NCBI GenBank assembly: GCA_002070605.1
Contig: MWDO01000003.1
Coordinates: forward strand, 11,853 to 75,852
Reading direction: 5' to 3'
DNA from: Spirochaetes bacterium ADurb.Bin133
Lineage (GTDB): Bacteria; Spirochaetota; GWE2-31-10; MWDO01
DNA: 64,000 nt
The translations under genes were made by a program, and so were the position numbers. Below, one piece after another: positions 7,172 to 46,352 of this stretch. How positions within the stretch are numbered: position 1 is the stretch's first letter; the number at the start of each line of letters is the position of its first letter. The notes beneath the pieces were generated by a model that saw only the letters and a list, made by a program, of their open reading frames with translations, made no database searches and had not been told where the DNA came from.

Positions 7172-7363
7172 CCTATCGGTTTTTTGGAAATTGACACATA
7201 TGGGTCTCATAACCGCCGCCGCGCTCCCCGATGAAAATTCGACGCATATGGAGCTATATGCGCCGCGCGACAATTATCATATAAAAATTGAACGCGCATG
7301 CGTCAATTTTATCTTTAGCGCCATATGTGTCAATTTTGTTTCGTCCCCCAAAAAACCGATAGG
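7172..7363. repeat. MITE-like modular repeat, complete copy
   Basis: Perfect 16-bp terminal inverted repeats CCTATCGGTTTTTTGG (7172-7187) / CCAAAAAACCGATAGG (7348-7363) enclosing four CATATG-type units; near-identical inverted copy at 27460-27676. Confidence 0.9.
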
Positions 7364-7387
7364 GATACATTTACCTTATTATTTTTC

Positions 7388-7436
7388 TTGACTCAGTTAC
7401 AAAGAAGTTGTATTATTTAGTTAGTCTTAGCTAACA
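7388..7436 (+). promoter_or_regulatory. sigma70 promoter plus palindromic operator (TetR-like)
   Basis: TTGACT-17-TATTAT followed by TTAGTTAG-N6-CTAAC; the same operator occurs at 27381-27401. Confidence 0.65.
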
Positions 7437-7458
7437 TAAAGCCAAGGAGATATATACA

Positions 7459-7684
7459 ATGGGAATTATAAAAAAAAATTTTCAGTCATACGTGTAAGCC
7501 GGAGGGCTTTCTTGGAAAAATGATGCTAAACAGAATGAATGCAGGACACGCAAAAATTATCGACGGCATGAAATGTTATGCAATAGAGGAAATCGAAGCG
7601 GCGCTGAGGAATGCAGGCTTTTCAGAGGTTGAATCCGAACATCATCATGCAAAGCCGTGGATTACGGTTTTGGCAAAGAAGTAA
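7459..7684 (+). pseudogene. Class I SAM methyltransferase, frameshifted and internally deleted
   Basis: AAGGAG RBS. After removing one A from a 9-A run it reads MGIIKKIFSHTCKPEGFLGKMMLNRMNAGHAK joined directly to IIDGMKCY...GFSEVESEHHHAKPWITVLAKK*, i.e. the N- and C-termini of a known MTase family without the SAM-binding core. Confidence 0.7.
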
Positions 7685-7713
7685 ATGGGAAAGATGAATA
7701 CGAGGAAACTTTG

Positions 7714-8331
7714 ATGAAAAAAAATACGCTGTTTTGGGATCGCGTTGCCTTCGTCTACGATATTTTTGTGAATGTCATAAATGTAAAAACGCATCGGCAA
7801 TTGCGCCGCGAGATTTGTGATTTAATTGAGCCGTCCGATGTCGTTTTAGAATGCGCATGCGGAACGGGTATGCTCGCGGAAGTCATTGCGCCTCGATGCG
7901 CAAAATTGATAGCGACGGATTTTTCAACAAAGATGTTACAAAAGACAGAGAAAAAATGCAAGCGATTTACAAATACAACATATACGATAGCTAACATACT
8001 AGATTTAAATTTTGAAACCGGCTCGTTCGACACAGTTGTCGCCGGCAACGTCGTTCACCTGCTCCGCGATCCGCGCGAAGCGTTGCAAGAATTAGACCGC
8101 GTGTGCCGTCCGGGCGGAAAAATTATTATACCGACCTATATCAATAAAGATGAAAACAACAAAGAGAATAAATTTGCAAAAATAGCTGGGAAAATCGGGA
8201 CAGGTTTTAAAAATAAATTTACGTTTGATTCATACGAGCGATTTTTTATTGACGCGGGTTACGACGATGCAAAGTTTATTACGGTCGAGGGAAAAATTCC
8301 CTGCTCAATTGCGGTGATAGAGAAAAAGTAA
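7714..8331 (+). CDS. Class I SAM-dependent methyltransferase
   Basis: VLECACGTG, ATDFS and FDTVVAGNVVH motifs; start moved to ATG 7714 (GAGGA RBS). Confidence 0.9.
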   Translation: MKKNTLFWDRVAFVYDIFVNVINVKTHRQLRREICDLIEPSDVVLECACGTGMLAEVIAPRCAKLIATDFSTKMLQKTEKKCKRFTNTTYTIANILDLNFETGSFDTVVAGNVVHLLRDPREALQELDRVCRPGGKIIIPTYINKDENNKENKFAKIAGKIGTGFKNKFTFDSYERFFIDAGYDDAKFITVEGKIPCSIAVIEKK

Positions 8332-8351
8332 AAAAATAAAGGAGTATTGAT

Positions 8352-9185
8352 ATGAAAAAGATTAAAATAGAAAAAAATACCGTTCAGGAAACGCTTATAA
8401 TTCCTCTGTACGGAAGAAAAATGTGTTCCGAGAAATTCCCCAAACTCTATACGGATATTTTTGCAAAGGAATTATGCGATAGGTTGGACTATGATTTTTC
8501 AGAATTAGAAAAAAAGAATAATTCGTTTTTGTATGAATTTGGTTCTCTTGAAGCTGCGATGCGGCAGTTGGATATGATATGGGAGATTAAAGCGTATTTA
8601 AAAAAGCGCCCCAAAGCAACGATTGTCAATCTCGGCTGCGGCTTGGACGAAACAGGAAAAGCCTGCGATAACGGACTGTGTCGTATCGTAAATGTTGATT
8701 TTCCCGACGTCATATCAGCTCGTAAGCAATTAATTACTGAACAGGAACGAGAAAAAAATATTGCCTGCGATTTAAAAGATTATTCGTGGATGGATGAAGT
8801 CGACGGTTCTAACGGAGTTATTTTTTTTGCCGCCGGAGTATTTCATTATTTTAAGATGGACGAAGTAAAGTCTTTGGCGTTAGAACTTTCAAAAAGATAT
8901 TCGGGGGGACGCTTAGTTTTTGACAGCGTAGGCAAGCTCGGTTTAAAACTGATGATGGCAACGGCATTAAAGAACATGGGTATTAACAATGTAGACGGTT
9001 TATTTTACGTAAATAATCCAAAAAAAGAACTAAATTGGTCGGAAAGAATTAAGGTTACTTCAAAAGGCTATATGCTGGGATATTACGATATGAAAAGTCC
9101 GGGTATTCGTTTTTCACATCGCCTGCTTGCAAAAATGGCAGATAAAATAATAAAGATGGCGATAAACAAAATGGAATTTGAATAA
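8352..9185 (+). CDS. LCM/TcmP-like O-methyltransferase
   Basis: VQETLIIPLYGR, IVNLGCGLD, NVDFPDV and FFAAGVFHYF. Confidence 0.9.
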   Translation: MKKIKIEKNTVQETLIIPLYGRKMCSEKFPKLYTDIFAKELCDRLDYDFSELEKKNNSFLYEFGSLEAAMRQLDMIWEIKAYLKKRPKATIVNLGCGLDETGKACDNGLCRIVNVDFPDVISARKQLITEQEREKNIACDLKDYSWMDEVDGSNGVIFFAAGVFHYFKMDEVKSLALELSKRYSGGRLVFDSVGKLGLKLMMATALKNMGINNVDGLFYVNNPKKELNWSERIKVTSKGYMLGYYDMKSPGIRFSHRLLAKMADKIIKMAINKMEFE

Positions 9186-9238
9186 AGGAAAAAAAACCAT
9201 GTTCGATTGCGGCGATAGAGAGACAAGGAGAAAATAAA

Positions 9239-9925
9239 TTGATTATGGGACGAAAAGAAAAAATCCAAAGCGTATATCGTCTTACCGGAAGCAATAAGTT
9301 TTATGACGGCATGATAACTTGTTCTACGCTTTCCGGCAAGATAGTCAGCCGGATAATTTGGAATATGAATGCGGAAGAAAGTTCCGAATATCAGATGCGG
9401 GCGTTATCAGGCATTCCGGAGGATTTTTCAGGCGCATTGTTGGAAGTTCCTGTAGGTACGGGAATTTTAACGGTTCCGATTTATCAAACAATCCCTCATG
9501 CCGACATTACATGCTTGGACTATTCGCCGGATATGATGGCGCAAGCCCGAGAAAAGGCGGAGCGAATAGGTCTTACAAATATTTCTTTCAGGCAGGGGGA
9601 TGTGGGAGCGTTGCCTTTTGAAGACGGCAGTTTCGATATTGTTCTTTCGCTCAACGGTTTTCACGCGTTCCCGGATAAAGAAGCGGCATACCGAGAAACG
9701 TTCCGGGTCTTGAAAAGCGGCGGCGTATTTTGCGGTTGTTTTTATGTGAAAGGTCTTTGCAAACAAACGGATTTTTTTATCCGTTATCTTTATCAACCGC
9801 TAAAATTTTTTACGCCGCCGTATGAGACAATGAACAGCTTGAACATACGCCTTAAAAATATGTATGAACGCGCGGAGTTAAGCAATGTAAAGGGAATCGC
9901 CTGTTTTATGTGTCGTAAAAAATGA
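9239..9925 (+). CDS. Class I SAM-dependent methyltransferase (UbiE/Methyltransf_11-like)
   Basis: LLEVPVGTG, CLDYS, QGDVGALPFEDGSFD and RVLKSGG. Confidence 0.9.
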   Translation: MIMGRKEKIQSVYRLTGSNKFYDGMITCSTLSGKIVSRIIWNMNAEESSEYQMRALSGIPEDFSGALLEVPVGTGILTVPIYQTIPHADITCLDYSPDMMAQAREKAERIGLTNISFRQGDVGALPFEDGSFDIVLSLNGFHAFPDKEAAYRETFRVLKSGGVFCGCFYVKGLCKQTDFFIRYLYQPLKFFTPPYETMNSLNIRLKNMYERAELSNVKGIACFMCRKK

Positions 9926-9944
9926 ATATATTAAGGAAAAAATC

Positions 9945-10679
9945 ATGACGGAAAAAATTGCGCTCAAAGAAAACATCAATTGGGACAAAGCGCGTCTTTT
10001 GCTGGCGATCGGTATTGCGGGGGCTAGCATTAACCTTGCAGGCGACATGCTCATGGGTTGGGGCGCGCGGGACGCAAGTTTGACAGGGGTAGAGGGGTAC
10101 GTTTCTCAGTATCTTACGATAGCTGATTGGAGAATGTTTTGGTCGGCGCTGTTGGGACTGATTGGCGTTCCCGTTAGTCTTGTAGGACATATCGGAATTT
10201 ACAAGCTTATTAAGCCGTATTCTAAAAAATATGCGCGATTGTACGGCGTTGGAATTTTTGGCGGCTTTACGTTCGGCGGCGCCGGCGTTCATGTCTCGTC
10301 CGTCGCTTCTGCCTTTTTTTATAAATATATGACAGCTGCAAGTTCTGAAACGGCTCTTGCAACATCGATACAATTTGTATGCTACTTTTCAGTACCGCTG
10401 TACATCGCGCTTTTGATATGCGTTCTTATACAATCGTATGCTCATATACGAGCGCTTGCGACAGGCTTAACCCCCTATCCCCGTTGGTGTTGGCTCTGTT
10501 CTCTGCCTGTGGGCGCATTGCTTGTTAGCCTTGTTTCTCTCTTCGGAAACTACGCGCTTGTAAATGCAATCATGGTCGGCGTTTTTTCCTTGGGAAATAT
10601 ATGGACGCAAAGTTGGCACTTGATATTGCTGGATAAAGCGAAAGGAGTTTACAACCCCAATGCTCCGTATGATGGATAA
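9945..10679 (+). CDS. Multi-pass membrane protein (DUF6796-like)
   Basis: About 6 hydrophobic segments and an AAGGA RBS; family recognised from GDMLMGW..G and YP(R/K)W motifs. Confidence 0.7.
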   Translation: MTEKIALKENINWDKARLLLAIGIAGASINLAGDMLMGWGARDASLTGVEGYVSQYLTIADWRMFWSALLGLIGVPVSLVGHIGIYKLIKPYSKKYARLYGVGIFGGFTFGGAGVHVSSVASAFFYKYMTAASSETALATSIQFVCYFSVPLYIALLICVLIQSYAHIRALATGLTPYPRWCWLCSLPVGALLVSLVSLFGNYALVNAIMVGVFSLGNIWTQSWHLILLDKAKGVYNPNAPYDG

Positions 10680-10691
10680 AGGAGGGCTTTT

Positions 10692-12902: not shown

Positions 12903-13035
12903 AGGAGAAATAAATGAAGATACTAAACGCCGGGAACCGAATAATGAACGCAACTCATGAAACTATGTATTGCCGAAAACGCAGAAATTCTATTACCGGC
13001 GCGCGGCGCTCCGTTCCCAATCAGAGACCTAAAAC

Positions 13036-13139
13036 GCAATATGCGTCGAATTTTTATCGAGGCGCGGCAATTATGTAGCGCATATGTGTCATTTTAATTT
13101 TAACGCCATATGCGTCGAATTTCCCAAAAAACCGGCGGG
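13036..13139. repeat. Modular repeat cluster (partial, one terminal motif)
   Basis: Three reverse CATATG(C/T)GTC units ending in CCAAAAAACCGGCGGG (13124-13139), between convergent genes. Confidence 0.8.
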
Positions 13140-13156
13140 CGCTTCTGCGTCTAATA

Positions 13157-13963
13157 TTAAAGCTGTATCGTATTTCCGGTCCAATTATAAAAAACGTTTG
13201 ATTTTACGATTTTATTTTTTAACGACAGATATTTATCGATTCCTGTACAATGCGACGCGCCGATATGCGTTATATCAAGCTCTTTTAGCGCGTCTATAAC
13301 TTTATCCGTAGTCGCGTCGTCCTCGCCCGAAAGATGATAGCCCCCCAACGCGTAGTCGATTGGCAGGTTAAATTCTGCGCTCGCCGTTTTTACGATATTC
13401 GTTATTCCTCTGTGCGAACAACCGCTAACGATATTTATTTTTCCGCCGTTTTTAATAACTAAAAACTGTTCGTCTGGAAAATTGTCTTCTATAAATTTGT
13501 TTTCTTCATTGAGGATATACATATTTTTAAAATGAGTATCAAAGTTATTATATATTTTTATGTCGGGAATAATAAAAAAATCTTTCGCGATCTCGGCGTT
13601 TTCTTTGATAAAAACTACCCTCTCCCCAATAGCCGATACGTCGAAAGGTATGCCGATATACTCCTTTTTTGATTTATATTTCTTGAAAAGCGCCTCTTTT
13701 TTTATGTAAATCGACGCTTTGTCGTTGCGTTTGACGAATTCCTCGATACCGCCCGTATGATCGTAATGCCCGTGGCTTATAACTAACGCGTCGATTTTGG
13801 AAATATCGATACCCAGAGTTTTAGCGTTATCGGCAAATATTCCCGACCGCCCCGTATCAAATAGTATCTTTAGTTCGTCCGTCTCAATCAGTAATGAAAA
13901 TCCATGCTCGCCAAAAAGATTTTTACCGTAGACTACGTTGTCTATTAATGTCGTTATTTTCAT
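13157..13963 (-). CDS. MBL-fold metallohydrolase (COG1237-type)
   Basis: EHGFS, LFDTG, SHGHYDHTGG, GCSH, GGYH and HCTG. Confidence 0.9.
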   Translation of the reverse strand: MKITTLIDNVVYGKNLFGEHGFSLLIETDELKILFDTGRSGIFADNAKTLGIDISKIDALVISHGHYDHTGGIEEFVKRNDKASIYIKKEALFKKYKSKKEYIGIPFDVSAIGERVVFIKENAEIAKDFFIIPDIKIYNNFDTHFKNMYILNEENKFIEDNFPDEQFLVIKNGGKINIVSGCSHRGITNIVKTASAEFNLPIDYALGGYHLSGEDDATTDKVIDALKELDITHIGASHCTGIDKYLSLKNKIVKSNVFYNWTGNTIQL

Positions 13964-14739
13964 ATTTGTCTCTCGTATAAATATTTTACGACTAACTGAA
14001 CAAAACTTAGCGATATTACGATGAACAATATAATTTTTAAAATTTTTGGCGGCGCGATTTTACTTACTCTGGCGCCAAATTGAGCGGAAATCAACGAACC
14101 GAGGACGACCGGCGCCAACAATATATAGTCGACTTGAAACGATAAAATCTTACCTATCGAGCCGAAAAGCGCGCCGATAAATATTATTCCAAGACTAGTG
14201 CCGATAGTAATTTTTAGAGGAATCTTTAAGATTTTAGTCATAATCGGTATTAATATAAATCCGCCGCCCGCGCCGACTATTCCCGAAATAGCGCCTACCG
14301 CTACCCCCGTGGGTATCAATAGCTTTTTATTCACTACAACGTCAGATAGTTCCTCGTTATCGTTTTGATTGCGCTCCAATAAGAGAAGCGCCAAAGACAA
14401 TAAGATAGTCGCGGCAAATATTATTAGAATAATATCGTTATTTAAATATTTTGAAAAATAAGAGCCTAATAAAGACGAAATTCCCATAGATATACCGACA
14501 TATAGCAATATTTGATAGTGTACAAAACGGTTTTTTCCATGGATAATAAGTCCGGATATTGAAGAAAAAAACGCTTGAACCATCGATAATCCGGCAACCG
14601 ATTTCATCGTTAGCGCGCCTACGTTGAATAGCGGAGGAATATTTAGCATAAGCGGTACAATAACGACCGCGCCGCCCAATCCCAAAAAACCGGATAAAAA
14701 TCCGCCGACTAAACTTATTAAGAATAATGTAATAATCAA
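13960..14739 (-). CDS. TauE/SafE sulfite-exporter family membrane protein
   Basis: Two GFLSGFLGLGG / GAISGIVGAGGG repeats and about 8 TM segments. Confidence 0.9.
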   Translation of the reverse strand: MIITLFLISLVGGFLSGFLGLGGAVVIVPLMLNIPPLFNVGALTMKSVAGLSMVQAFFSSISGLIIHGKNRFVHYQILLYVGISMGISSLLGSYFSKYLNNDIILIIFAATILLSLALLLLERNQNDNEELSDVVVNKKLLIPTGVAVGAISGIVGAGGGFILIPIMTKILKIPLKITIGTSLGIIFIGALFGSIGKILSFQVDYILLAPVVLGSLISAQFGARVSKIAPPKILKIILFIVISLSFVQLVVKYLYERQI

Positions 14740-14761
14740 ATTATTTTCCTACTTTTTTGCG

Positions 14762-14894
14762 CCCGTCGGTTTTTAATTTACTAATTAAAAATATTTTTTC
14801 CATATGCGTCGAATTTTTATTCTTAACATCATATGTGTCGAATTTTCTCCTTAACGTCATATGTGTCATTTTTCTCCTCCAAAAAACTAATGGG
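14762..14894. repeat. MITE-like modular repeat
   Basis: CCCGTCGGTTTTT ... CCAAAAAACTAATGGG ends enclosing three ~28-bp CATATG units; the right end overlaps the radical SAM stop codon. Confidence 0.85.
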
Positions 14895-15837
14895 GCGTCT
14901 TTTTTTTATTCGTTAGCGCAATAAAATTTTTTCCTTCGACCGTTTCAACTTGCGCTTCTTTTTCTTCCAGCAACTTATTGGCAAGCTTCGTCGCCTCGTT
15001 TCTGTTTATTTGTAGCCCGCTCGCTATATCGTCGATCGAACAGGGGCGGCGGCGCAACAGGTTTATTACGTCGAATTTGTCTACGACATTATCGCTCTCA
15101 ATTTTAGGTTGAAATTTATATATAATTTCAACGTCTTTATGTTTAAAAAAAGTTTTATATCTATTCATCTCTTCGGTTGTCGGCGCTTTAGCGTAACTTT
15201 CGGCGGGAGGTCTATCCACGCTGTTCAACTGAACCTTATCGACTCTCATTTTATTGACAATCTGAGCTATAATATCGATTTTGCCGTCGTTCATCGCCGT
15301 ATCTTTCAATAAAAAAACTTCGAGCCATATTTTGTTTTTAAAACCATGACTAAATTCAATCAATCCCTCTATTATTTTCTCGCGCGACAACTGTTTTTCA
15401 GGTCTGTTTACTTTTTGAAAACTATCGTCGTCCCAAAAATCTAGCGAAGGTTTAACCAGATCGGCGTTCTTTATATCGTCGCGTACTTTCTCGTCCCACA
15501 AAAGCGAGCCGTTGGTAAGTATCGCCGCGGGTATATCGGTAACGCTTTTTATAAAATCAATAAGTTCGCCTAACTTCGAATAAAGCGTCGGCTCGCCGGA
15601 ACCGGCGATTGTTATATAATCGATCTTGATATTCTCCTTTAACTTTTCGGTTAATTCGCGCTTAATATCTTCCAGCGGTATATACTCTTTTCTTTCGACG
15701 GTCTTATTGGTAGTTCTTCCAAGTTCGCAATAAACGCAATCAAAACTACAGGTTTTGAAAGGTATAACGTCCGCTCCAAGAGAAAGCCCAAGACGTCTCG
15801 ACGGTACGGGTCCGAATATATATTTGTAATTACTCAT
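14887..15837 (-). CDS. Radical SAM protein (COG0731-like) with a C-terminal HTH-like extension
   Basis: FGPVPSRRLG.SLG, CSFDCVYC, GSGEPTL and LTNGSLL. Confidence 0.9.
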   Translation of the reverse strand: MSNYKYIFGPVPSRRLGLSLGADVIPFKTCSFDCVYCELGRTTNKTVERKEYIPLEDIKRELTEKLKENIKIDYITIAGSGEPTLYSKLGELIDFIKSVTDIPAAILTNGSLLWDEKVRDDIKNADLVKPSLDFWDDDSFQKVNRPEKQLSREKIIEGLIEFSHGFKNKIWLEVFLLKDTAMNDGKIDIIAQIVNKMRVDKVQLNSVDRPPAESYAKAPTTEEMNRYKTFFKHKDVEIIYKFQPKIESDNVVDKFDVINLLRRRPCSIDDIASGLQINRNEATKLANKLLEEKEAQVETVEGKNFIALTNKKKTPH

Positions 15838-20040: not shown

Positions 20041-20120
20041 AAAATTTGCGCTCCTTGCAACTATATTACAAGGTTTAATTATACATTTTTTTCAAATAAA
20101 AATAAAGCGCTTTTTGTAAT

Positions 20121-20287
20121 CCGTCAGTTTTTTTTGCGGGGGACGGGGAAATTGACGTATGCGACGTTAAGAATAAAATTGACACATATGCGTTAGATAA
20201 AAAAAATCGACGCATATAGCGTTAGGAATAAATTGACACATATGCGTCGGCTCTAAATTATTTGTTATCCTCCAAAAAACTGACGGG
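20121..20287. repeat. MITE-like modular repeat
   Basis: CCGTCAGTTTTTT ... CCAAAAAACTGACGGG ends; four tandem ~27-bp AAATTGACACATATGCG units. Confidence 0.9.
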
Positions 20288-20301
20288 ATGCGCGCTTTTT
20301 T

Positions 20302-20667: not shown

Positions 20668-20747
20668 CTTTGACTCCTTTTCTTTGTTTTATCTACATCT
20701 TCATAAAAGACGATTTGCTTCGCCTCTTATTATCTCTTTCGCGTAAT

Positions 20748-20848
20748 CCGTCAGTTTTTTGGGGCGAGGAAATGAATAACGCGGGTCTGTCTCAAAAAAA
20801 TTGACACATATGGAACAAATATTTTCTATTCCTCAAAAAACTGACGGG
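20748..20848. repeat. Short MITE-like repeat
   Basis: CCGTCAGTTTTTTG / CAAAAAACTGACGG inverted ends with one TTGACACATATG core. Confidence 0.85.
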
Positions 20849-20882
20849 GTACTCTTCCGCGTATAGCGCGGTTAATTTTTAA

Positions 20883-22649: not shown

Positions 22650-22706
22650 GCGTTATTTTTTAAAATTTGCTCCCCGTGTCATTCAAAAAACCGACGTATT
22701 CTATAT

Positions 22707-22771: not shown

Positions 22772-25700
22772 ATGGCTTTTAAGGACGTCGATAAACAGGT
22801 AAATTTCTCAAAACTGGAAGAAGAAGTTTTAAAAATATGGAAAAAGAACAGGTATTTCGAAAAATCTCTCGAAAAAACCAGAAACAACGAGCAGTATGTA
22901 TTTTACGACGGACCTCCGTTTGCTACGGGATTACCGCACTACGGACATATTTTGCCCGGAACTATAAAGGACATAGTCCCAAGGTATCAAACGATGAAAG
23001 GCAAATACGTCGAAAGGAGATGGGGATGGGATTGCCACGGACTTCCCGTTGAAAATTTGATAGAAAAAGATCTGAATCTCAATAGCAAAAAAGAGATACT
23101 GGAATACGGAATAGATAAATTTAACGAAGCGTGCCGCGCCAGCGTTTTGAGATATACAAACGAATGGGAAAAAACTATCGATCGCATGGGGCGATGGGTG
23201 GATTTCAAAAATTCTTACAGAACGATGGACCTCGATTATATGGAGTCTATATGGAACGTTTTTAAGTCGCTCTGGGAGAAGGGGCTTATTTACGAAGGAC
23301 ACAAGATCCTACCGTACTGTCCTAGGTGCGCCACGCCGCTATCGAATTTTGAGACTAATCAGGGCTACAAAGACGTTCAAGACCCGGCTATTACCGTCGC
23401 GTTCAAGATAAAGGGCGAGGAGAATTGTTATATTCTCGCGTGGACGACGACTCCGTGGACGCTCCCTTCAAATATGGGTTTAGCGGTCGGCGAAGATATA
23501 ACATATGTGAAAATCGAAGACGAAGGGCAAAATTATATTTTAGCGGAAGCGCTTCTGTCCAAATATTATAAAAATCCCGATTTGGTAAATATACTAAAAA
23601 GATATACGGGAAAAGAACTCGTCGGAATGAGATACGAGCCGCTTTTTCCATATTTTAAAGACGAGGAGAAAAACGGCGCGTTTAGAATTACGCTTGGTCA
23701 TCACGTATCGACCGAGTCGGGAACCGGAATCGTGCATATAGCTCCGGGATTTGGCGAGGACGACGCCGAGATCGGTAAAAAAGAGGGACTTCCGACGAAA
23801 TGTCCCATCGACGACGAGGCGAAATTTACCGAGGAGATATACGACTACAAAGGAATCGGCGTAAAAAAAGCGGACAAAGAGATAATGAAACGCTTAAAAG
23901 ACGAGAAGAAACTGATAAAACATGAAACATATCAACACTCGTACCCGCACTGCTGGAGATGCGACGAGCCGCTTATCTATAAAGCGGTATCAAGTTGGTT
24001 TGTCGATATTCAGGCGATCAAACAGGATATGATCGACGCCAATAGTAAAATTAACTGGGTTCCCGCGCATATAAAAGACGGAAGATTTGGCAAATGGATC
24101 GAACAAGCGCGGGACTGGGCTATAAGCCGCAACAGATATTGGGGTTGTCCGATACCGGTATGGAAGTGCGAAGAGTGCGGCGAAACGCTTTGCGTCGGAA
24201 GCGTCGAGGAGCTTGAGAAACTTAGCGGCGCAAAGATTAACGACATCCATATACATTTTGTCGATCCTATCAAACTTAAATGTAAAAAATGCGGCTCGTC
24301 TATGAGCCGTATCGAGGAGGTGCTGGACTGCTGGTTTGAGTCGGGAGCGATGCCTTACGCTCAAAATCACTACCCGTTTGAAAATAAAGAAAAATTTGAA
24401 TCGACTTACCCCGCCGACTTTATAGCCGAAGGGCTTGATCAAACGAGGGGCTGGTTTTATACTCTGGTAGTTTTGGGGGCGGGGCTCTTCAAAAAGAACG
24501 CCTTCAAAAACGTCGTAGTCAACGGGCTTGTGTTGGCGGAAGACGGCAGAAAAATGTCTAAAAGATTGAAAAATTACCCGGAAGTCGACTATATTTTCGA
24601 TAAATACGGCGCCGACGCCCTGAGGCTGTATCTTATGAACTCCGCCGCCGTTAAAGCGGGAGAATTGCTCTTTTCTGAAAACGGAGTTTCTGAAGTAGTC
24701 AGAAACTTTCATCTGCCTCTTTGGAACTCCTATTCGTTTTTTGTAACCTACGCTAATATTGATAAATGGACGCCCAAAAATAAAACGGACAATTTTCAGA
24801 ATCCTCTCGATATATGGCTAAACAGCTCCGTCGAGAAGCTCTCTTCAGAAGTCGACGCGGCTTTGTCGGAATACGATTTTCAGAAAGCGATAAAATTTTT
24901 GTATAAATTTATCGACGGATTAACCAATTGGTATATACGAAGATCGAGAAGGCGATTTTGGAAGTCCGAAGACGACAGCGATAAAAACGAGGCGTATTCG
25001 GCTTTGTATAACGCGTTGATGAAATTTACAATCTTATCCGCGCCCATCGCCCCTTTTTTGTCCGATTATATCTATTCGAATTTAAAAAGCGAAGAGGCGC
25101 CGGAGTCCGTCCACCTTTGCGATTACCCCGAAGAGAATCCGGCGATACGGGACAAAGAGTTGGAAGCCGAGATGGATATAGTTCAAATCGCCGTCGAAAT
25201 GGGAAGAAGTCTAAGGTCCAAAATAGGAATAAACCTGCGAAAACCGTTAAACTCGCTATATTGCATCACCAAAAACGAGAACGATATAAGATTGCTTTCC
25301 AAGATGGAGTCTATACTCAAAGAGGAACTCAACGTCAAAAACGTCGTATTCGAACAGGAAGAAGAGAAACTTGTAACTCTTACCTGTAAAGCAAACTTTA
25401 GAGTTTTGGGAAAAAAGGCGGGAAAAGATATGAAAACTCTAGCCGATATTATCTCAAAATTCGGAGCCAAAGAAGCGCGCGATCTAGAGGACGGCAAAGA
25501 TGTAAAAGTTAAAGTCGGAGAGGTAGAATATTCTCTAGCCATAGAAGACGTTCTTGTAGAAAGAAAGGAAAAAGAGGGCTTAACGATACTTAACGAAGGG
25601 TCTCTTACCGTCGCTCTGGATTCGACCTTGACAAAAGAACTTGTCGAGGAAGGAATAGCCCGGGAATTTATCAGGCATATTCAGAATCTTAGAAAGGATA

Positions 25701-25894
25701 AAAACTTGCATGTCGCGGATAGAATAAAAATAACGTATAACGCGCCGGAACATATATGCGCCGCTATTACCTCGTGGGATAAAACCGTCAAAGACGAAAC
25801 GCTCGCCCTCGATATATCGATCGACGGCGCCGCTAAATTCGACGCCAACGTCGACGAAGTAGATATTAAAATAGACTTAGAGAAGGTTTCATAG
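22772..25894 (+). CDS. ileS: Isoleucine--tRNA ligase (type 2)
   Basis: FYDGPPFATGLPHYGH (HIGH), GWDCHGLP, DWAISR.RYWG and KMSKR; start moved to ATG 22772 (GAGG RBS). Confidence 0.97.
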   Translation: MAFKDVDKQVNFSKLEEEVLKIWKKNRYFEKSLEKTRNNEQYVFYDGPPFATGLPHYGHILPGTIKDIVPRYQTMKGKYVERRWGWDCHGLPVENLIEKDLNLNSKKEILEYGIDKFNEACRASVLRYTNEWEKTIDRMGRWVDFKNSYRTMDLDYMESIWNVFKSLWEKGLIYEGHKILPYCPRCATPLSNFETNQGYKDVQDPAITVAFKIKGEENCYILAWTTTPWTLPSNMGLAVGEDITYVKIEDEGQNYILAEALLSKYYKNPDLVNILKRYTGKELVGMRYEPLFPYFKDEEKNGAFRITLGHHVSTESGTGIVHIAPGFGEDDAEIGKKEGLPTKCPIDDEAKFTEEIYDYKGIGVKKADKEIMKRLKDEKKLIKHETYQHSYPHCWRCDEPLIYKAVSSWFVDIQAIKQDMIDANSKINWVPAHIKDGRFGKWIEQARDWAISRNRYWGCPIPVWKCEECGETLCVGSVEELEKLSGAKINDIHIHFVDPIKLKCKKCGSSMSRIEEVLDCWFESGAMPYAQNHYPFENKEKFESTYPADFIAEGLDQTRGWFYTLVVLGAGLFKKNAFKNVVVNGLVLAEDGRKMSKRLKNYPEVDYIFDKYGADALRLYLMNSAAVKAGELLFSENGVSEVVRNFHLPLWNSYSFFVTYANIDKWTPKNKTDNFQNPLDIWLNSSVEKLSSEVDAALSEYDFQKAIKFLYKFIDGLTNWYIRRSRRRFWKSEDDSDKNEAYSALYNALMKFTILSAPIAPFLSDYIYSNLKSEEAPESVHLCDYPEENPAIRDKELEAEMDIVQIAVEMGRSLRSKIGINLRKPLNSLYCITKNENDIRLLSKMESILKEELNVKNVVFEQEEEKLVTLTCKANFRVLGKKAGKDMKTLADIISKFGAKEARDLEDGKDVKVKVGEVEYSLAIEDVLVERKEKEGLTILNEGSLTVALDSTLTKELVEEGIAREFIRHIQNLRKDKNLHVADRIKITYNAPEHICAAITSWDKTVKDETLALDISIDGAAKFDANVDEVDIKIDLEKVS

Positions 25895-27380: not shown

Positions 27381-27435
27381 TTAGTTAGCCTGATCTAACT
27401 AGTATAGATTTTAATATTAATATTTTTTTTGTCAA
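27381..27435 (-). promoter_or_regulatory. sigma70 promoter plus TAGTTAG-N6-CTAACTA operator
   Basis: Minus-strand TTGACA-16-TAAAAT followed by a 7-6-7 inverted repeat similar to 7417-7436. Confidence 0.6.
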
Positions 27436-27459
27436 GTACTATTAGTTTTTACGCTGTAC

Positions 27460-27786
27460 CCTATCGGTTTTTTGGCGGGCGGAACAAAATTGACACATAT
27501 GATGTTGCGGAGAAAATTCGACGCATGTGGCGCTAAAGATAAAATTGACGCATGCGCGTTCAATTTTTATATGATAATTGCCGCGCGGCGCATATAGCTC
27601 CATATGCGTCGAATTTTCATCGGGGGACGCGGCGGCTATGAGACCCATATGCGTCGATTTTCCAAAAAATCGACGGACGGGGCGCGCGTCTCCGCTAAAT
27701 ACATTATATTAGTATATTCAAAACGGGAATTCCCGTTTTTTTATTAATAGCGTCCCATATGCGTCATTTTCCAAAAAACTGACGGG
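27460..27786. repeat. Composite modular repeat (MITE-like copy, palindrome module and second terminal motif)
   Basis: 27460-27676 is the reverse complement of 7172-7363 with one extra internal unit; then AAAACGGGAATTCCCGTTTT and CCAAAAAACTGACGGG (27771-27786). Confidence 0.9.
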
Positions 27787-27807
27787 CGCGGGTTAGCGCG
27801 TTTTTTC

Positions 27808-27836
27808 TTGACTTATAGCGCTATTAATAGTATTAT
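27808..27836 (+). promoter_or_regulatory. TA operon promoter
   Basis: TTGACT-17-TATTAT. Confidence 0.7.
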
Positions 27837-28408: not shown

Positions 28409-28470
28409 TATATTCAAAACGGGAATTCCCGTTTTTTTATTAATAGCGCCCCATAGATGTGTCAAATTTA
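28409..28470. repeat. Palindrome module and core unit of the repeat family
   Basis: 28409-28448 is identical (40/40) to 27713-27752; followed by a reverse GACACATCTATG unit. Confidence 0.9.
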
Positions 28471-37499: not shown

Positions 37500-38366
37500 A
37501 TGAAAAGTTATCAATCGTATTCTAAAATAAATCTGTTTCTAAACGTAACCGGAAGGTATAAGAGCGGTTATCACTCTATAAAGAGTCTATTTTGCCGCGC
37601 TACGTTGTCGGATAGCATATCCTATTCTCTAAACGATACAAATAAAATCAAAATTATAGACAAAAAAAATATATTGCCGGAGAATAATCTTTTAAAAACG
37701 GCGGCAGATAAAATTATTTCGAGTTTGAACGGTAGAATTCCTTTTGGCATAGATTTTACAGTCGAGAAAAAAATACCTATAGGCGGCGGGCTTGGCGGCG
37801 GCTCTTCTAACGCCGCTTCCGTTTTAAAAATTTTAAATAAAGAGTGGCGGCTAAATTTCGGGGTTGAAAAATTAAAAAAAATCGCGCGACAAATCGGAGC
37901 GGACGTCCCCTTTTTTATCGAGGGGGGGACGCAAAAAGTTTTCGGCGTCGGGGAGATAGTCAAATCAATAAAAACGGGAATTCCCGTTTTTTATTTAATT
38001 CTGGTTTTCCCGGAAATTCAGGTATCCACTCCCGCCGCTTATAAATTGATTGACGACAATAATATGGCTTGCGAATCTTACGAAGAACGAAAAATGTTTA
38101 AAAAATTAATCGAAGGGTACCGCTCTAACGATTACAAAAAAATAATTTCTAATGTTTATAATAAATTTGAATATCCCGTATTTGCTCAAAACAAAATATT
38201 ATCTGATATAAAAAACGACGTTCTTGACAGCGGAGCCGACGCGTCGGTTATGTCTGGATCCGGCTCGACGATAATCGGCATATACGAGACTTATGAAAAA
38301 AGAAAAACGGGAATCGAGCGTTTACAATCTTACGGATATAACGTCGAGCCGGTAGAAATATTTTAG
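37500..38366 (+). CDS. ispE: 4-diphosphocytidyl-2-C-methyl-D-erythritol kinase
   Basis: KINLFL, GYHSI, KKIPIGGGLGGGSSNAA, GADVPFF and MSGSGST. Confidence 0.95.
   Translation: MKSYQSYSKINLFLNVTGRYKSGYHSIKSLFCRATLSDSISYSLNDTNKIKIIDKKNILPENNLLKTAADKIISSLNGRIPFGIDFTVEKKIPIGGGLGGGSSNAASVLKILNKEWRLNFGVEKLKKIARQIGADVPFFIEGGTQKVFGVGEIVKSIKTGIPVFYLILVFPEIQVSTPAAYKLIDDNNMACESYEERKMFKKLIEGYRSNDYKKIISNVYNKFEYPVFAQNKILSDIKNDVLDSGADASVMSGSGSTIIGIYETYEKRKTGIERLQSYGYNVEPVEIF
37970..37991. repeat. Repeat-family palindrome inside ispE
   Basis: AAAAACGGGAATTCCCGTTTTT (22-bp perfect palindrome) encoding KTGIPVF. Confidence 0.85.
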
Positions 38367-38384
38367 AAAAATTGGACGCATATG

Positions 38385-38760
38385 CGTCAAAAAAAACAAC
38401 AACATATGCGTTAAAAAAACAAATTGACACATATGGAGCTGTAGGCCGCGCCCTGATAAAACCGGGAATTCCCGTTTTGAATATATTAAAATACTAACAC
38501 CCTCTTCATACCGGGACCTTATCGGGCTCGCGTCGCTCCCCGACGAATAATTTGACACATATGGAGCTATACGCGCGGGACGCGAAATCGAGGGTTCAGT
38601 TCTACACATACCGCCGCGGCTACTCCCCGATAAAAATTTGACACATATGAGCTACATAACTGCCGCGCCGCTCCCCCAATAGAATTTGACACATATGGAG
38701 CTATACGCCGCGCGACTATTGAACCATTGATTTTCCCTCGTATACGCGCGGGGCGCGATA
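38385..38760. repeat. Large modular repeat cluster between ispE and parC
   Basis: About six TTGACACATATG units with GC-rich GGAGCTA..GCCGCGCCGCTCCCCGA linkers and a palindrome module at ~38461. Confidence 0.9.
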
Positions 38761-42052: not shown

Positions 42053-42058
42053 AAAAAA

Positions 42059-42544: not shown

Positions 42545-42618
42545 AGGAGAAAAAAAAGGGGAGAGAAAAAAGGGAATAAAGAGAAAAAAGAGAAAAAAAG
42601 CGCCGGAATAACCGACGC
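42545..42618 (-). terminator. Intrinsic terminator with long pyrimidine tail
   Basis: Minus-strand GCGTCGG-TTATT-CCGGCGC followed by a T/C-only tract. Confidence 0.5.
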
Positions 42619-42626
42619 CCATAATT

Positions 42627-43391
42627 TTATTTAACTATATACCAAACCATATCAAAACCGACTTTGCTCTGATAGCAGAATATCTTCGTAGCGGCGTCGG
42701 ACGGACCGGAAATGGAAGCTAAGGAGTTGTAATATCGCGTAAACTCGTCGAAATCCTTAATAGCGTATTGATAATGAAGTCCAATCGTAAAACTGATAAA
42801 ATTGAGTTCGAGACCTAACCTAAAGTGCATACCGGGTCTAAATAGGAAGTTTTTAAATCCCGCGTAATTGCTCTTCCACTCTTCTACTTTCAAAAATTCG
42901 TCGGGGTAAAAACTGAAATTAAATAATATTCCGGTCATTAGATAAGGCTGTATAAAAAACGGCGCGCGGATCCCCGCGTTTAAAGATAGACCTAAATCAA
43001 TACGTCCGTTATAAGAGCCGTCGAACGGTAAAAAAGCAAGATCCGCGTCGGCAATAAGCATATGGTACATAAATCTGAATTTTACTCCGTATTCAAGTCC
43101 CGCAAGTATATTTGCCGTTATTATAGCGGATTGCATTCCAACGTCTAAGGATTTTAGAGCGTCTTTTTGTTCGTCGGTTAAGCCCGGATAGTTATAATCT
43201 TCGCCTTTATTAATAGCTTCATACATTTTCGCCGATTCTATTAATCCGAGCATATTTGGAGTTTGAACGGAAAAACCAATGCCGAATTTAAATCCTAACA
43301 ACATTCTTTTAAGATCAATATTGGATTTGGCAAATGTAGAAAATGTCAATAACAATAATAACATAACCAATAAAAATTTCTTTCTCTTCAT
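42627..43391 (-). CDS. Putative small outer-membrane beta-barrel protein
   Basis: Signal peptide, alternating hydrophobic strands (GFKFGIGF, GVKFRF, GLELNF, GLHYQY) and aromatic C-terminus. Confidence 0.55.
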   Translation of the reverse strand: MKRKKFLLVMLLLLLTFSTFAKSNIDLKRMLLGFKFGIGFSVQTPNMLGLIESAKMYEAINKGEDYNYPGLTDEQKDALKSLDVGMQSAIITANILAGLEYGVKFRFMYHMLIADADLAFLPFDGSYNGRIDLGLSLNAGIRAPFFIQPYLMTGILFNFSFYPDEFLKVEEWKSNYAGFKNFLFRPGMHFRLGLELNFISFTIGLHYQYAIKDFDEFTRYYNSLASISGPSDAATKIFCYQSKVGFDMVWYIVK

Positions 43392-43552
43392 AAAAGTCCT
43401 CCTAAAATAACTACTCTAGCGCCTTATATGCCGTAAGTAAACCTAAAACATTAATTATAACGCTAAAAAAAATAATAACAAATATTTTACTAATTAATTG
43501 GAAATATTTATAAACTGTATAAATATTCATACCCATTTACGGTAAGTATAGT

Positions 43553-44194
43553 TTAAAAAATAGCATTAATCAAGTTATTAATGACGTTTAAAATCATTTC
43601 TTTCCTTTTCTCGTCGGCAACGACGGTTTTATTTACAGCGTCTCCGGTCGTATCTATAGTTATAACGTCGTCGCCGTTAAGAATAGTTCGGTCGTTTTGT
43701 AAAAGAGAACTAAATCTGAGCGTCTGATTTTGAATATTAGACGACGCTACCGTTCCGTTTACGATGTCCTTTACGTTAACCGTCCCGCTTATTTGAATAC
43801 TACTTATTTTATTGTTTAAATAAATCTGTTTTTGAGCTGTTATTCCTAGATTTTCTCCATTAACGGCTACAACTCTGCCTTGAAGTTCAGTTTTTATTTT
43901 TAAATCGTCGTTTTCGCTCGAATTTTTATTATCGCTCGTATCTCCGGTTGGTAAGAAATTCAATAGAGCCGAATATTCTCCCCCCTTGATATTTATTGAA
44001 AAATTTTTAACGGATTTGACCCCTGATTTGTAAACTAAAGAGCTGTTTTCATTAACCAATATTAAGACAGAATCGCCTATCGAGTAATTTATTTTGGAAT
44101 TGTAAATATTAGCGTAGTTATCGTTCCACAACGTTTCGGGATAAAAAAAAACGCAAAAACTTAAGAAACCTAATACTAAAAATTTTTTTTTCAT
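43553..44194 (-). CDS. FlgH (flagellar L-ring)-like exported protein
   Basis: TLW...IY......IGD.VLILV.E, RVVAV..ENL.I...KQI.LN....IQISG.V...DI..GTV.S. Confidence 0.65.
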   Translation of the reverse strand: MKKKFLVLGFLSFCVFFYPETLWNDNYANIYNSKINYSIGDSVLILVNENSSLVYKSGVKSVKNFSINIKGGEYSALLNFLPTGDTSDNKNSSENDDLKIKTELQGRVVAVNGENLGITAQKQIYLNNKISSIQISGTVNVKDIVNGTVASSNIQNQTLRFSSLLQNDRTILNGDDVITIDTTGDAVNKTVVADEKRKEMILNVINNLINAIF

Positions 44195-44265
44195 ATTACT
44201 TCCGTTTACTGTGATTACTAAATTATCGGAATATTTATAAAAAAATAGAATTATATGAACTGTTT

Positions 44266-44430
44266 TTTTAGTATATTCAAAACGGGAATTCCCGTTTTGA
44301 ATATACTAAAACACTAAAGCGTTCTTCATACTGGGACCTTATCGGAGCTCGCGTCGCTCCCCGATGTAATTTGACACATATGGAGCTGCATACGTCGCGC
44401 CGCTCCCTGAGAGAATTTGACACATCTATG
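44266..44430. repeat. Repeat cluster with a perfect 46-bp palindrome
   Basis: TTTTAGTATATTCAAAACGGGAA|TTCCCGTTTTGAATATACTAAAA (44266-44311), linker and two core units. Confidence 0.92.
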
Positions 44431-44804
44431 CCGAGAAAATATTGCTAGCCGGCGGGCATGGTTATATAATGAAAACAGAAATTCTTGAAAAAATGATAGA
44501 AGCGATAAGGATCGTATTTAACGGCGGTATATATGTCAGCGAAAATATTAAAGACCGGCTGTTAATTAAAAAATATTCTCAAAAAACCGGTTTAATAAAA
44601 AATGTTGAAGATACGCTGTCTCAAAGAGAATACGAAATTTTTAAATACGTCGGCGCGGGTTATTCCCCAAGCGAAATATCCAATCTTTTGAATTTATCCG
44701 TCTCGAGCGTAAATACTTACAAAAAAAGAATTCAAGATAAACTAAATATAAACGATTCTTGCGAGCTTAAAAAATACGCTATTAAATATTTTAAAAGTTT
44801 GTGA
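44421..44804 (+). pseudogene. NarL/FixJ-family response regulator lacking most of the receiver domain
   Basis: IYAEKILLAGGHGYIMK (end of REC) plus LSQREYEI...LSVSSVNTYKKRI (LuxR HTH); in-frame TGA at 44418 inside the repeat. Confidence 0.75.
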
Positions 44805-44817
44805 AACAATAGTTTTT

Positions 44818-44890
44818 AATTTTGACGCATAGACGCCGCGCCCCGATGAATAAATTGACACATATGGAGTAACATACTCGCCGCGAATTA
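44818..44890. repeat. Repeat cluster
   Basis: Two TTGAC(A/G)CAT units with CCGCGCCCCGATGAATAAA linker. Confidence 0.8.
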
Positions 44891-44896
44891 ATTTTA

Positions 44897-45151
44897 TTAT
44901 TTATACGCATCTTTTCTAAAAACAACTCTTGATACTACTACTTTTTTTTCTTTTTCTTCAATGTAAAATAATATTCGATAATTCCCAGATCTTAATCTAT
45001 ATTCATTATCTCTATCTACTAATTTTTTAACATTCTGATTTCGAGGATTTTCTTTTAGAGTTTCAATATTTTTCAAAATGACCGAATAAAAAGGTTCATT
45101 AATATCTTCTAAATCTTTAACAGCGCTTTTTTTCAACGCAATATTATACAA
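44897..45151 (-). CDS. RelE/ParE-family toxin
   Basis: KSAVKDL, L..NPR...KKL, YRLRSGNYRILF and R.DAY. Confidence 0.88.
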   Translation of the reverse strand: MYNIALKKSAVKDLEDINEPFYSVILKNIETLKENPRNQNVKKLVDRDNEYRLRSGNYRILFYIEEKEKKVVVSRVVFRKDAYK

Positions 45152-45338
45152 TTTTTTTTAACCTTTTATAGTCGTCAAAATTAACTTCATCTTCGTCTAT
45201 TGTTTTTTTAATTAATTCTGAATCTATCTTATCTTCAATTATTTCTATCAGTTTAAGAAAATCATTATAATCAATTATTACTTTCGTTTTATTCCCCTGA
45301 TCGTCGACTATATATTCTCTTGTTAATGATAAATTCAT
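45144..45338 (-). CDS. Cognate antitoxin (RelB-like, 64 aa)
   Basis: YIVDDQG.KT.VII....F..L.E..ED; acidic; overlaps the toxin start. Confidence 0.8.
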   Translation of the reverse strand: MNLSLTREYIVDDQGNKTKVIIDYNDFLKLIEIIEDKIDSELIKKTIDEDEVNFDDYKRLKKIV

Positions 45339-45370
45339 AATTTTTCCCTTACGCGCTTAATATTATTATT

Positions 45371-45399
45371 AATTTAATATTTTTAAACAAAAATATCAA
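45371..45399 (-). promoter_or_regulatory. TA operon promoter
   Basis: Minus-strand TTGATA-17-TAAATT. Confidence 0.55.
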
Positions 45400-45419
45400 T
45401 AAAATTTACTCCAAAAATG

Positions 45420-45590
45420 GTAATTCGTTAGTTTTTTGAGAATTTAAAACATCTGTCCCATATTCGCCGCGCCGCTCCCCCGATAGAAATTTGACACATA
45501 TGTGTCAAAATAAAATTCGACACATATGGGTATCCACCGACCCCTCGATTTCGCATCCCGCGGCGCGTAGTCGAGGGTTTGAAATACGTC
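45420..45590. repeat. Repeat cluster with degenerate terminal motif
   Basis: GTAATTCGTTAGTTTTTTGA (compare GTAATCCGTCAGTTTTTTGG at 20743); perfect palindrome TTTGACACATATGTGTCAAA at 45490-45509. Confidence 0.85.
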
Positions 45591-45635
45591 TACTGAATCG
45601 TATTTATCCATGGTACAGATTTAATTTATTTACCT

Positions 45636-45948
45636 TTAAAATTTTTTCAAAATATTATCATAATCTGCATGAGAACCTATCCAAAACCAAATGATTTCAT
45701 CTTTATTTGCAAAAACGCCTAAGGCTCTCCACCCTATGCCAACTCTAATAGAATATTGTTTTTCCGGCTTTATAATTTGAGACGGCTTCTTCAGCCATAC
45801 TTTCTAATATGTCTTGAGACTCTATAAATAAATTATCTCATTTTAATTCCGACTCAATCTCATCAAGTATCTGTTGAGCCAATAGATTTTGAATTGAATC
45901 GGGCAAATTAGAACTTTTTTTAAAAGCTTTTTCTAATAATTTTGTCAT
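45636..45948 (-). pseudogene. Inactivated type II TA pair (antitoxin with nonsense codon plus C-terminal half of a RelE-like toxin)
   Basis: MTKLLEKAFKKSSNLPDSIQNLLAQQILDEIESELK*DNLF..SQDILESMAEEA....AGKT (TGA at 45840-45838); in another frame YSIRVGIGWRALG...IIWFWIGSHADYD* with no toxin N-terminus; absent from the ORF track. Confidence 0.8.
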
Positions 45949-46056
45949 TATTACCGCCTATCGTCTAATAAATTTAAACAATTAAGACAAATTTGTCAAT
46001 AATTATTTAATCGTAAAATAGCCGCATGTCATTCAAAAAAACAAAGATTATCGTTG

Positions 46057-46304
46057 ACTTTTACCATAGATGTCAAAAAATAAATTTGACACATATGGAT
46101 CTGCATAGTCGCCGCGCCGCTCCCCGATGAAAATTGACACATATGCGCCGCTTCCTGATAAAAGCGGGAATTCCCGTTTTGAATATACTAAAACACTAAA
46201 GCGCCCTTCATGCCAAGACCTTATCGGGACTTGCGGCGCTCCCTGATATAAAATGACACATATGTGTTAAAATTCCTATCGCCCTAAAAAACCTATAGAG
46301 GTAC
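46057..46304. repeat. Repeat cluster with palindrome module and degenerate terminal motif
   Basis: Three core units, GCGGGAATTCCCGTTTTGAATATACTAAAAC and CTAAAAAACCTATAGAGGTAC (46284-46304). Confidence 0.88.
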
Positions 46305-46323
46305 GATTCAAGAATATTTTTAT

Positions 46324-46352
46324 TTGACTTTATTAATACCAATATGTATATT
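46324..46352 (+). promoter_or_regulatory. TA operon promoter
   Basis: TTGACT-17-TATATT. Confidence 0.7.

Follow-up and report, generated by a model that had tools for sequence, protein, structure and literature searches.

Targeting of the region upstream of promoters is rare among bacterial transposons and has so far been described for the TnGBS/ISLre2 elements and the ISKra4 group. Prokaryotic Mutator-like (p-MULT) elements are bounded by inverted repeats (IRs) of 18–39 bp, the last base of which is C, and have 8–9-bp direct repeats (Guerillot et al. 2014, PMC3942029). Insertion 15–17 bp upstream of sigma-A −35 boxes, with a peak at 16 bp, was reported for the TnGBS integrative and conjugative elements (ICEs), the ISLre2 family (p-MULT 3) and the ISKra4 group (p-MULT 4) (PMC3942029). 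Elements with symmetric IRs, such as ISLbu1, occur in both orientations, and the TnGBS/ISLre2 transposase was proposed to contact the RNA polymerase initiation complex; the TnGBS authors drew an analogy with Ty3 and the Dictyostelium TRE elements, which target RNA polymerase III initiation complexes (PMC3942029). The hosts in that survey were Firmicutes, Fusobacteria and Synergistetes, and no spirochaete was among them (PMC3942029). We analyzed a stretch of 64,000 nt (hereafter, the window) from Spirochaetes bacterium ADurb.Bin133 (assembly GCA_002070605.1, contig MWDO01000003.1, positions 11,853 to 75,852 of the forward strand). It carries a family of miniature inverted-repeat transposable elements (MITEs), the ends of which lie at a fixed distance from promoters, and target-site choice by a TnGBS/ISLre2-like transposition system is the probable cause of this spacing.

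The MITE family and its closest relatives

A metagenome scan with a pattern combining the terminus of the repeat with its internal box returned at least 110 loci from the same and related organisms, over which the repeat is dispersed; approximately 14 termini are present in the 64-kb window. The box is a ~17-bp sequence, AAAWTYGACRCATATGG, arrayed in many intergenic regions, and its core GACRCATATG has 55 matches in the window when one mismatch at most is allowed. Elements bounded by pairs of inverted termini comprised 69 unique complete copies, which were 74–476 bp long (most commonly ~100 bp) and contained no notable open reading frame (ORF). Their terminal inverted repeats (TIRs; 22–26 bp) read GTA(A/T)(T/C)CYGTCRGTTTTTTGGGG...CCCCAAAAAACYGACRG(G/A)(T/A)TAC, also written as CCCCAAAAAACYGACGG(A/G)(T/A)TAC; other writings of the TIR are CCCCAAAAAACTGACGGATTAC, ...CCGACGGGATAC and the GTAATCCGTCAGTTTTTTGGGG type. 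The 4-nt tips are immediately flanked by a target-site duplication of 9 bp or, in some copies, 8 bp, and 17 of 68 copies matched at 8 or more of the 9 positions. When the duplication register was scanned over all offsets, we observed a peak at 4/4 and a drop at 10 bp, and the shifted control gave 0. The repeat is thus a MITE family: short and non-coding, with TIRs, duplications and presence/absence polymorphism.

The polymorphism concerns a 110-bp copy at 20743..20852 (ends GTAATCCGTCAG...CTGACGGGGTAC), which is located between two co-oriented NifB/X-like genes and is flanked by an 8-bp target-site duplication (20735-20742, TCTTTCGC; 20853-20860, TCTTCCGC). Neither of its ends has a promoter. 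The copy is absent from strain L037, where the empty site reads ...ATCTCTTCCGCGTATAGCG... versus ...ATCTCTTTCGC / GTAATCC...GGGGTAC / TCTTCCGCGTATAGCG... in the filled site, with 96.7% identity across the junction. The empty site therefore proved the GTAA...GTAC boundaries, the 8-bp duplication and recent mobility for this copy. In a relative with 94% identity in IleRS, the two flanking genes are only 15 nt apart.

The TIR resembles the IRs of TnGBS and ISLre2. Compared by eye, they agree in length and in the succession of A-tract, (T)TGAC, N2-3, (A/T)TAC and terminal C. The right IRs listed in Table S1 of PMC3942029 are ...GAAAAACTTGACACATAC for ISBco5, ...GGAAAACTTGACACATAC for ISAot1, ...GAAAACTTGACAGATAC for ISLre2, ...CAAAAACTTGACGCGGTC for ISAmo1 and ...CCCAAAAATTCAGACACATAC for TnGBS2. 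The internal box of the MITE, AAATTGACACATATG, contains the 10-mer TTGACACATA found in the right IR tips of ISBco5 and ISAot1. The duplication of 9 bp (sometimes 8 bp), the placement at a fixed distance upstream of the −35 box and the occurrence in both orientations are further shared features. Unlike TnGBS and ISLre2, the spirochaete repeat is non-coding and has tandem internal IR-like boxes with GC-rich units, and its Spirochaetota host lies outside the phyla of the 2014 survey. No description of an ISLre2-derived MITE was found in the literature searched.

The ISKra4 group is also similar in its promoter-upstream insertion, near-perfect symmetric IRs, promoters on either side and 9-bp direct repeats, but its IRs in Table S1 (...CAACTAGTGGCTACGCCC, ...TTTTATGCACCC) do not resemble the MITE TIR, and its reported targeting signal is weaker. 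With Ty3 and TRE the MITE has in common integration at a fixed distance from transcription initiation, whereas the enzymes and the polymerase are unrelated, so that this analogy is functional only.

Predicted promoters at a fixed distance from MITE ends

The original prediction placed a 16-nt terminal motif 24 nt upstream of a −35 box at four loci of the window, and 21 nt upstream at a fifth. The sequence was as stated at all five pairs of motif and promoter coordinates, including the deviating gap of the fifth case. The motif (CCAAAAAACYGAYRGG; 18 matches in the window at ≤3 mismatches versus 3.5 expected) is the outer part of the TIR minus its last 4 nt. At 7348-7363 (+), it belongs to a complete copy of ~200 bp (7167..7368; left TIR GTAATCCTATCGGTTTTTTGG, right TIR CCAAAAAACCGATAGGGATAC) with internal boxes and GC-rich 48-nt units, the interior of which is 94% identical, in inverted orientation, to 27514-27636. 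The predicted sigma-70-type promoter of a methyltransferase operon (7388..7416, +; TTGACT, 17 nt, TATTAT) lies in host DNA beyond the element, separated from the motif by 24 nt and from the TIR tip by 19–20 nt. A composite MITE array (27456..27790) separates a GGDEF/EAL gene (-) from a Phd/YafQ toxin-antitoxin pair (+) and has outward termini at 27475-27460 (-, tip GTAC), 27662-27677 (+) and 27771-27786 (+). The predicted promoter of the GGDEF/EAL gene (27408..27435, -; TTGACA, 16 nt, TAAAAT) lies 24 nt from the first of these termini, and that of the Phd/YafQ pair (27808..27836, +; TTGACT, 17 nt, TATTAT) lies 21 nt from the last, which has a GC-rich tip.

The remaining two motifs had been described as degenerate, and they match at 12 and 13 of the 16 positions. 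One is the terminus 45439-45424 (-) of a decayed MITE (45420..45530; boxes at 45493-45528), which reads TCAAAAAACTAACGAA (12/16) with tip TTAC and stands 24 nt from the predicted promoter of an antitoxin/ParE-type pair (promoter 45371..45399, -; TTGATA, 17 nt, TAAATT; genes from 45338 down to 44897). The other is the right terminus 46284-46299 (+) of a decayed MITE array (46069..46304), which reads CTAAAAAACCTATAGA (13/16) with tip GGTAC and stands 24 nt from the predicted promoter of a DUF433/PIN-like pair (46324..46352, +; TTGACT, 17 nt, TATATT).

TTGA was present exactly 24 nt past the motif at 5 of the 14 window termini (background 0.0069 per position; binomial test, P = 3e-8). Four of these were followed by a −10 box at 16–17 nt; at the fifth, 20135-20120 (-), the −35 box is TTGAAA and the −10 is ambiguous. 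From the metagenome loci and the window together, 262 termini were taken. In 177 of them, a box lay in the 60 nt upstream and there was no box downstream, and the non-redundant set drawn from these contained 139–142 termini. As had been anticipated, the distance distribution was not flat. The histogram of distances between motif and promoter word (139 termini) peaked at 24 nt, where TTGAC was found 10 times (mean elsewhere 0.28; Poisson P = 7e-13), TTGA 17 times (mean elsewhere 1.1; P = 6e-15) and TTG 26 times (mean elsewhere 2.8; P = 6e-17). The profile had a sharp upper edge at 24 nt and a tail down to 21 nt, and no secondary peaks were observed at ±10–11 bp.

Promoters were scored by their matches to TTGACA and TATAAT (maximum 12) with a −35/−10 gap of 16–18 nt, and a score of at least 9/12 was required. 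Such a promoter was present at 66 of the 95 termini facing a gene start. The spacer was 21–26 nt in 38 of these 66 promoters (4, 7, 8, 16, 2 and 1 cases at 21, 22, 23, 24, 25 and 26 nt, respectively), and only ~20 cases were spread over spacers of 28–92 nt. Termini facing the 3′ end of a gene (n = 40) had 10 promoter-like sites, without a peak. A −10 box matching at ≥5 of 6 positions was found behind 48% of the phased TTGs versus 12% of the other TTGs (P = 2.5e-11). Because phased TTGs come with a −10 box far more often than other TTGs do, the phased feature is a complete promoter (−35 plus −10).

The 24-nt spacer is made up of the 4-nt TIR tip ((A/T)TAC), the duplication of 8–9 nt and 11–12 nt of host DNA. 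Measured from the TIR tip, the −35 box is ~20 nt away (mode 20, range 17–22), which places the tip near position −56. Because the duplication begins 4 nt past the motif, the phased promoter is host DNA outside the element. The spacers were said to be unrelated apart from their start, and the larger set agreed with this: only positions +2 to +4 (TAC) were conserved, the terminal C at +4 being found in 87 of 142 ends. Two types of tip were distinguished, (A/T/G)TAC and GC-rich NCGC-like; TAC tips predominated among the ends at exactly 24 nt, and several ends at 21–23 nt were GC-rich-tipped. Between two strains (L073 and L074), the same spacer differs by 1 nt (25 versus 26). The spread of 21–25 nt may thus be due in part to tip type and small indels.

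Approximately 22 unique copies had intact duplications, which mark recent insertions, and ~11 of them had a near-consensus promoter at a spacer of 23–25 nt on exactly one side. At locus L086, the duplication AAAATAGCC is followed by 11 nt, TTGACA, 17 nt and TATTAT. Targeted insertion is the economical reading because a 9-bp duplication would probably decay before a full promoter could evolve; judging from the intact duplications, the promoters most likely pre-date the insertions. The first explanation offered in the original prediction, that insertion is positioned relative to the promoter, was backed by the TIRs and their likeness to TnGBS/ISLre2, by the 8–9-bp duplications with the −35 and −10 boxes in host DNA beyond them, and by the phasing of about half of the copies with intact duplications on exactly one side.

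Proposed targeted insertion and its rivals

In the mechanism that we propose, a transposase supplied in trans would mobilise the MITE. This transposase would most likely be a prokaryotic Mutator-like enzyme of the TnGBS/ISLre2 type, a family in which a DDE transposase (p-MULT 3; UPF0236/ISLre2-type) carries a promoter-targeting signature motif; because no transposase was found, the family assignment was made from DNA features only. The enzyme would cut its target with a 9-bp (sometimes 8-bp) stagger, and it would prefer sites that are a set distance upstream from the −35 hexamer of pre-existing sigma-70-type promoters. It would find this site through promoter-bound RNA polymerase or sigma, and not through DNA sequence alone, as has been proposed for TnGBS. 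Either end could face the promoter because the TIRs are nearly symmetrical. The MITE family appears to be best explained as belonging with the known TnGBS/ISLre2 kind, with the MITE form, the new phylum and a 4-bp shift in register as variant features.

Several observations weigh against this interpretation. The 1.1 Mb of retrieved related contigs yielded neither an autonomous copy nor an ISLre2-type transposase, and tblastn with the ISLre2 transposase gave no match in these loci. An empty site was not found for any phased insertion in public contigs, relatives or retrieved loci. The EAL/toxin-antitoxin and AAT/methyltransferase loci were identical in all public contigs, with no empty site, and the complete copy at 7167-7368 is fixed, being present in all 9 public contigs of its locus. 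In relatives with 94% and 76% IleRS identity, synteny was lost and gave no empty-site comparison for phased copies, and the search within the retrieved loci yielded only the non-phased 20743-20852. The comparison with empty sites proposed in the original prediction thus succeeded for this non-phased copy and for no phased insertion. Approximately 60% of the gene-facing termini were not phased (~40% were), so that targeting would be a preference and not a rule. All promoters in the analysis are predictions from sequence, and gene orientation at the metagenome loci was set by a crude longest-ORF rule. Moreover, the distance of ~20 nt between tip and −35 box differs from the 15–17 nt of TnGBS/ISLre2. 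Of three genuine ISLre2 copies from L. reuteri plasmids, two had 9-bp duplications, and in these two the distance measured with the same ruler was 16–17 nt; the ~4-bp shift relative to ISLre2 thus appears to be real. It may help to show how the transposase gauges its distance to the promoter complex. An alternative with a larger part for the shift or for the host is unlikely: a transposase of a divergent or unrelated lineage would read promoters ~4 bp further upstream than TnGBS/ISLre2 does, and/or the phase-locked TIR end, with its A6 tract near −70, would have been recruited by the host as a common upstream module that tunes dozens to hundreds of its promoters.

We considered it quite unlikely that the TIR end acts in cis as a phased regulatory element (a class-I-type activator site, a distal UP-like element or a bent A-tract) spaced by selection, either because only expression-raising insertions were kept or because promoters evolved at the optimal distance from the element. 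The motif would lie at approximately −76 to −61, with its A6 tract near −70, where the alpha C-terminal domain could reach it. Phasing is seen at ~40% of the gene-facing ends, and an effect on expression could coexist with targeted insertion. At class I activator sites, CRP is placed at −61.5 or −71.5, with contacts to the alpha C-terminal domain, and both these sites and UP elements resemble the MITE end in presenting a conserved A-tract sequence at a fixed position of ~−60 to −76. Unlike them, the MITE end shows no alternative helical registers (the profile has no peaks one helical turn away, a sharp edge at 24 nt and a tail to 21 nt), and the same termini occur where a promoter is absent, both within an operon and, for 40 of the 139 termini, facing the 3′ end of a gene. 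The phased class-I-type activator site, which the original prediction had offered as its other explanation, was disfavoured by these results. Copies with intact 8–9-bp duplications already have complete, consensus-like promoters, leaving little time for de novo evolution, and no candidate binding protein is known, whereas a documented transposase mechanism gives the same pattern with similar IRs (PMC3942029). The spacing between MITE end and promoter is accounted for by transposition geometry. The other form of selection, purifying selection on random insertions, would remove those less than ~20 nt from the −35 box and let the survivors pile up at the boundary. Compact intergenic regions constrain insertions, and the register falls at the upstream limit of the zone occupied by UP elements. 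This explanation is nevertheless very unlikely: under it, the distances should be cut off sharply at the lower end and trail far outward, the opposite of the sharp upper edge seen at 24 nt, and it does not fit so strong an enrichment at one base position.

It is highly improbable that the element carries an outward promoter of its own, with its true end beyond the −10 box and the 24-nt spacer as a fast-evolving internal segment. A run of Ts precedes TTGACT at the end of several spacers (7380-7393 and 27800-27813 are examples), but the duplication starts 4 nt past the motif and leaves both promoter boxes outside, the empty-site alignment puts the boundary at GTAC, the columns past +4 are uninformative in 142 ends, and the ends facing gene 3′ ends are without a promoter. 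Neisseria Correia elements and insertion sequences (ISs) with outward −35 boxes supply the promoter or the −35 box themselves. The MITE is like them a small intergenic TIR repeat near gene starts, whereas its promoter is wholly host DNA past the duplication. The notion of a portable expression module consequently lost its basis, since the element brings no promoter and none is present at the ends facing gene 3′ ends or at 20743-20852. The last explanation, in which the repeats are attC-like sites of a chromosomal integron or cassette array and the passenger cassettes have their own promoters, can be considered extremely improbable. Small toxin-antitoxin modules at 44.9–47 kb are each separated by repeat arrays, but arrays also flank the housekeeping genes for IleRS, ParC, IspE and Fur, the first three of which sit between arrays. 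In addition, repeats are found in either orientation, the 64-kb window contains no integrase or transposase gene, and the TIRs and 8–9-bp duplications indicate transposition and not site-specific recombination. The description of the neighbours as passenger or acquired genes was interpretation and not observation: besides toxin-antitoxin pairs, they include ordinary chromosomal genes such as the GGDEF/EAL gene and the methyltransferase operon. The possibility that the −35 box is another degenerate box of the array was rejected, given that the phased TTGACs have proper −10 boxes and sit beyond the duplication.

Targeted insertion by a TnGBS/ISLre2-like system would have practical consequences. 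A high-copy MITE of this kind would mark sigma-70-type promoters at base-pair resolution in an unculturable host, with ~40% of the gene-facing ends marking one. In annotation, caution is advisable before a regulatory site, an integron cassette or an expression module is called from such an array. 

The search for a partner transposase extended to neighbouring genes and other elements. In the retrieved loci, TIR pairs 0.7–4 kb apart enclosed only host genes, and the ORFs adjoining TIRs were host genes. When viral contigs were scanned for the TIR, the single match was in a phage gene and was attributed to chance. IS66, with IRs starting in GTAA and an 8-bp duplication, had been considered as the family and was dropped once the IRs matched those of ISLre2/TnGBS. 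An IS630-family IS of ~1.23 kb was present in the related metagenome contigs L115 (2088-3320), where it lies between MITE-type ends, and L137-L149; it encodes a 377-aa transposase (NF033545, 156 bits), which in many copies is split into 183 + 194 aa. It was rejected as the partner of the MITE, because it has its own TIRs (CTCCCTTCCAAGCG...CACTTGGAAGGGAG) and a duplicated TA and is thus a nested, separate element. Its insertion site is the central TA of CATATG, mostly within boxes of the MITE and in at least six different MITE copies; one transposon is therefore targeting a motif of another. At three MITE right ends beside IS630 copies, the promoters are still found at spacers of 24, 25 and 21 nt.

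Host, other copies and neighboring features

The window is chromosomal DNA with 38% GC. Its genes include those for IleRS (22772-25894), Fur, ParC, a Mur ligase, IspE, the GGDEF/EAL protein, PPDK and ABC transporters, together with a BsaWI-like restriction-modification pair and several toxin-antitoxin pairs. Proteins identical to those of the window were found in anaerobic-digester and activated-sludge metagenomes and in metagenome-assembled genomes labelled as Spirochaetota (NCBI; GCA_022704815.1), and the host of the MITE family is an uncultured Spirochaetota bacterium of anaerobic digesters. The box-plus-terminus pattern gave only 12 scattered single matches in the GTDB representative set, which does not contain the source species, and these were judged to be due to chance. 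No RNA family of Rfam matched the window at gathering thresholds. Public metagenome contigs of the host species end inside MITE arrays (L018, L019 and L021, 240–300 nt upstream of the EAL gene; L161 and L162). The repeats fragment short-read assemblies of this lineage, which explains intergenic breaks in metagenome assemblies.

Three other copies are present in the first third of the window. A copy or fragment at 13030..13143 has its terminus 13124-13139 (+) facing the 3′ end of a gene (13157-13963, -), and a promoter is absent. The copy at 14758..14898 (termini 14777-14762, -, and 14879-14894, +) has no phased promoter on either side, and a gene start at 14739 is just 22 nt away. The copy at 20116..20291 has termini at 20135-20120 (-, tip TTAC) and 20272-20287 (+), with TTGAAA 24 nt from the minus-strand terminus as described above. 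The sequence at 22683-22698 (TCAAAAAACCGACGTA) is terminus-like; it has no box nearby and lies 8 nt upstream of the predicted IleRS promoter (TTGACA, 17 nt, TATATT), and it could be a remnant or a chance match.

Internal boxes are spaced 26–29 bp or ~48 bp apart, with GC-rich spacers and sometimes with a GGGAATTCCCG hairpin module. Three arrays consist of such internal modules. The array upstream of parC (38370..38715) contains boxes (AAATTGACACATATGG), GC-rich 48-nt units and the hairpin, and no outer TIR is recognisable in it; those at 44260..44435 (hairpin module plus boxes) and 47060..47420 (six boxes plus hairpin module) are without an outer TIR. The box arrays that include GC-rich 48-nt units may provide additional binding sites for the transposase, or they may be remnants of nested or tandem insertions. 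Palindromic boxes (for example, TTGACACATATGTGTCAA) were observed at 7193-7206, 20181-20194, 20235-20248, 38375-38388, 45493-45506 and 46255-46268, and by their sequence look like two abutted ISLre2-type IR tips.

The hairpin module (AAAACGGGAATTCCCGTTTT, flanked by A/T runs) was present at 27720-27748, 28416-28444, 37971-37999, 38459-38487, 44279-44307, 46161-46189 and 47346-47374. It resembles a bidirectional terminator. Some copies stand alone behind genes and others form part of the larger arrays; the hairpin may belong to long variants of the MITE or constitute a repeat family in its own right. The region 45600-45950 is a decayed toxin-antitoxin remnant, the promoter of which (TTGACA, 45999-45994, -) has no MITE terminus upstream, as the original prediction had pointed out. 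Tightly between array fragments, at 44442-44804, lies a LuxR/GerE-type ORF with a TTG start and the C-terminal DNA-binding domain only, which may be a truncated response regulator.

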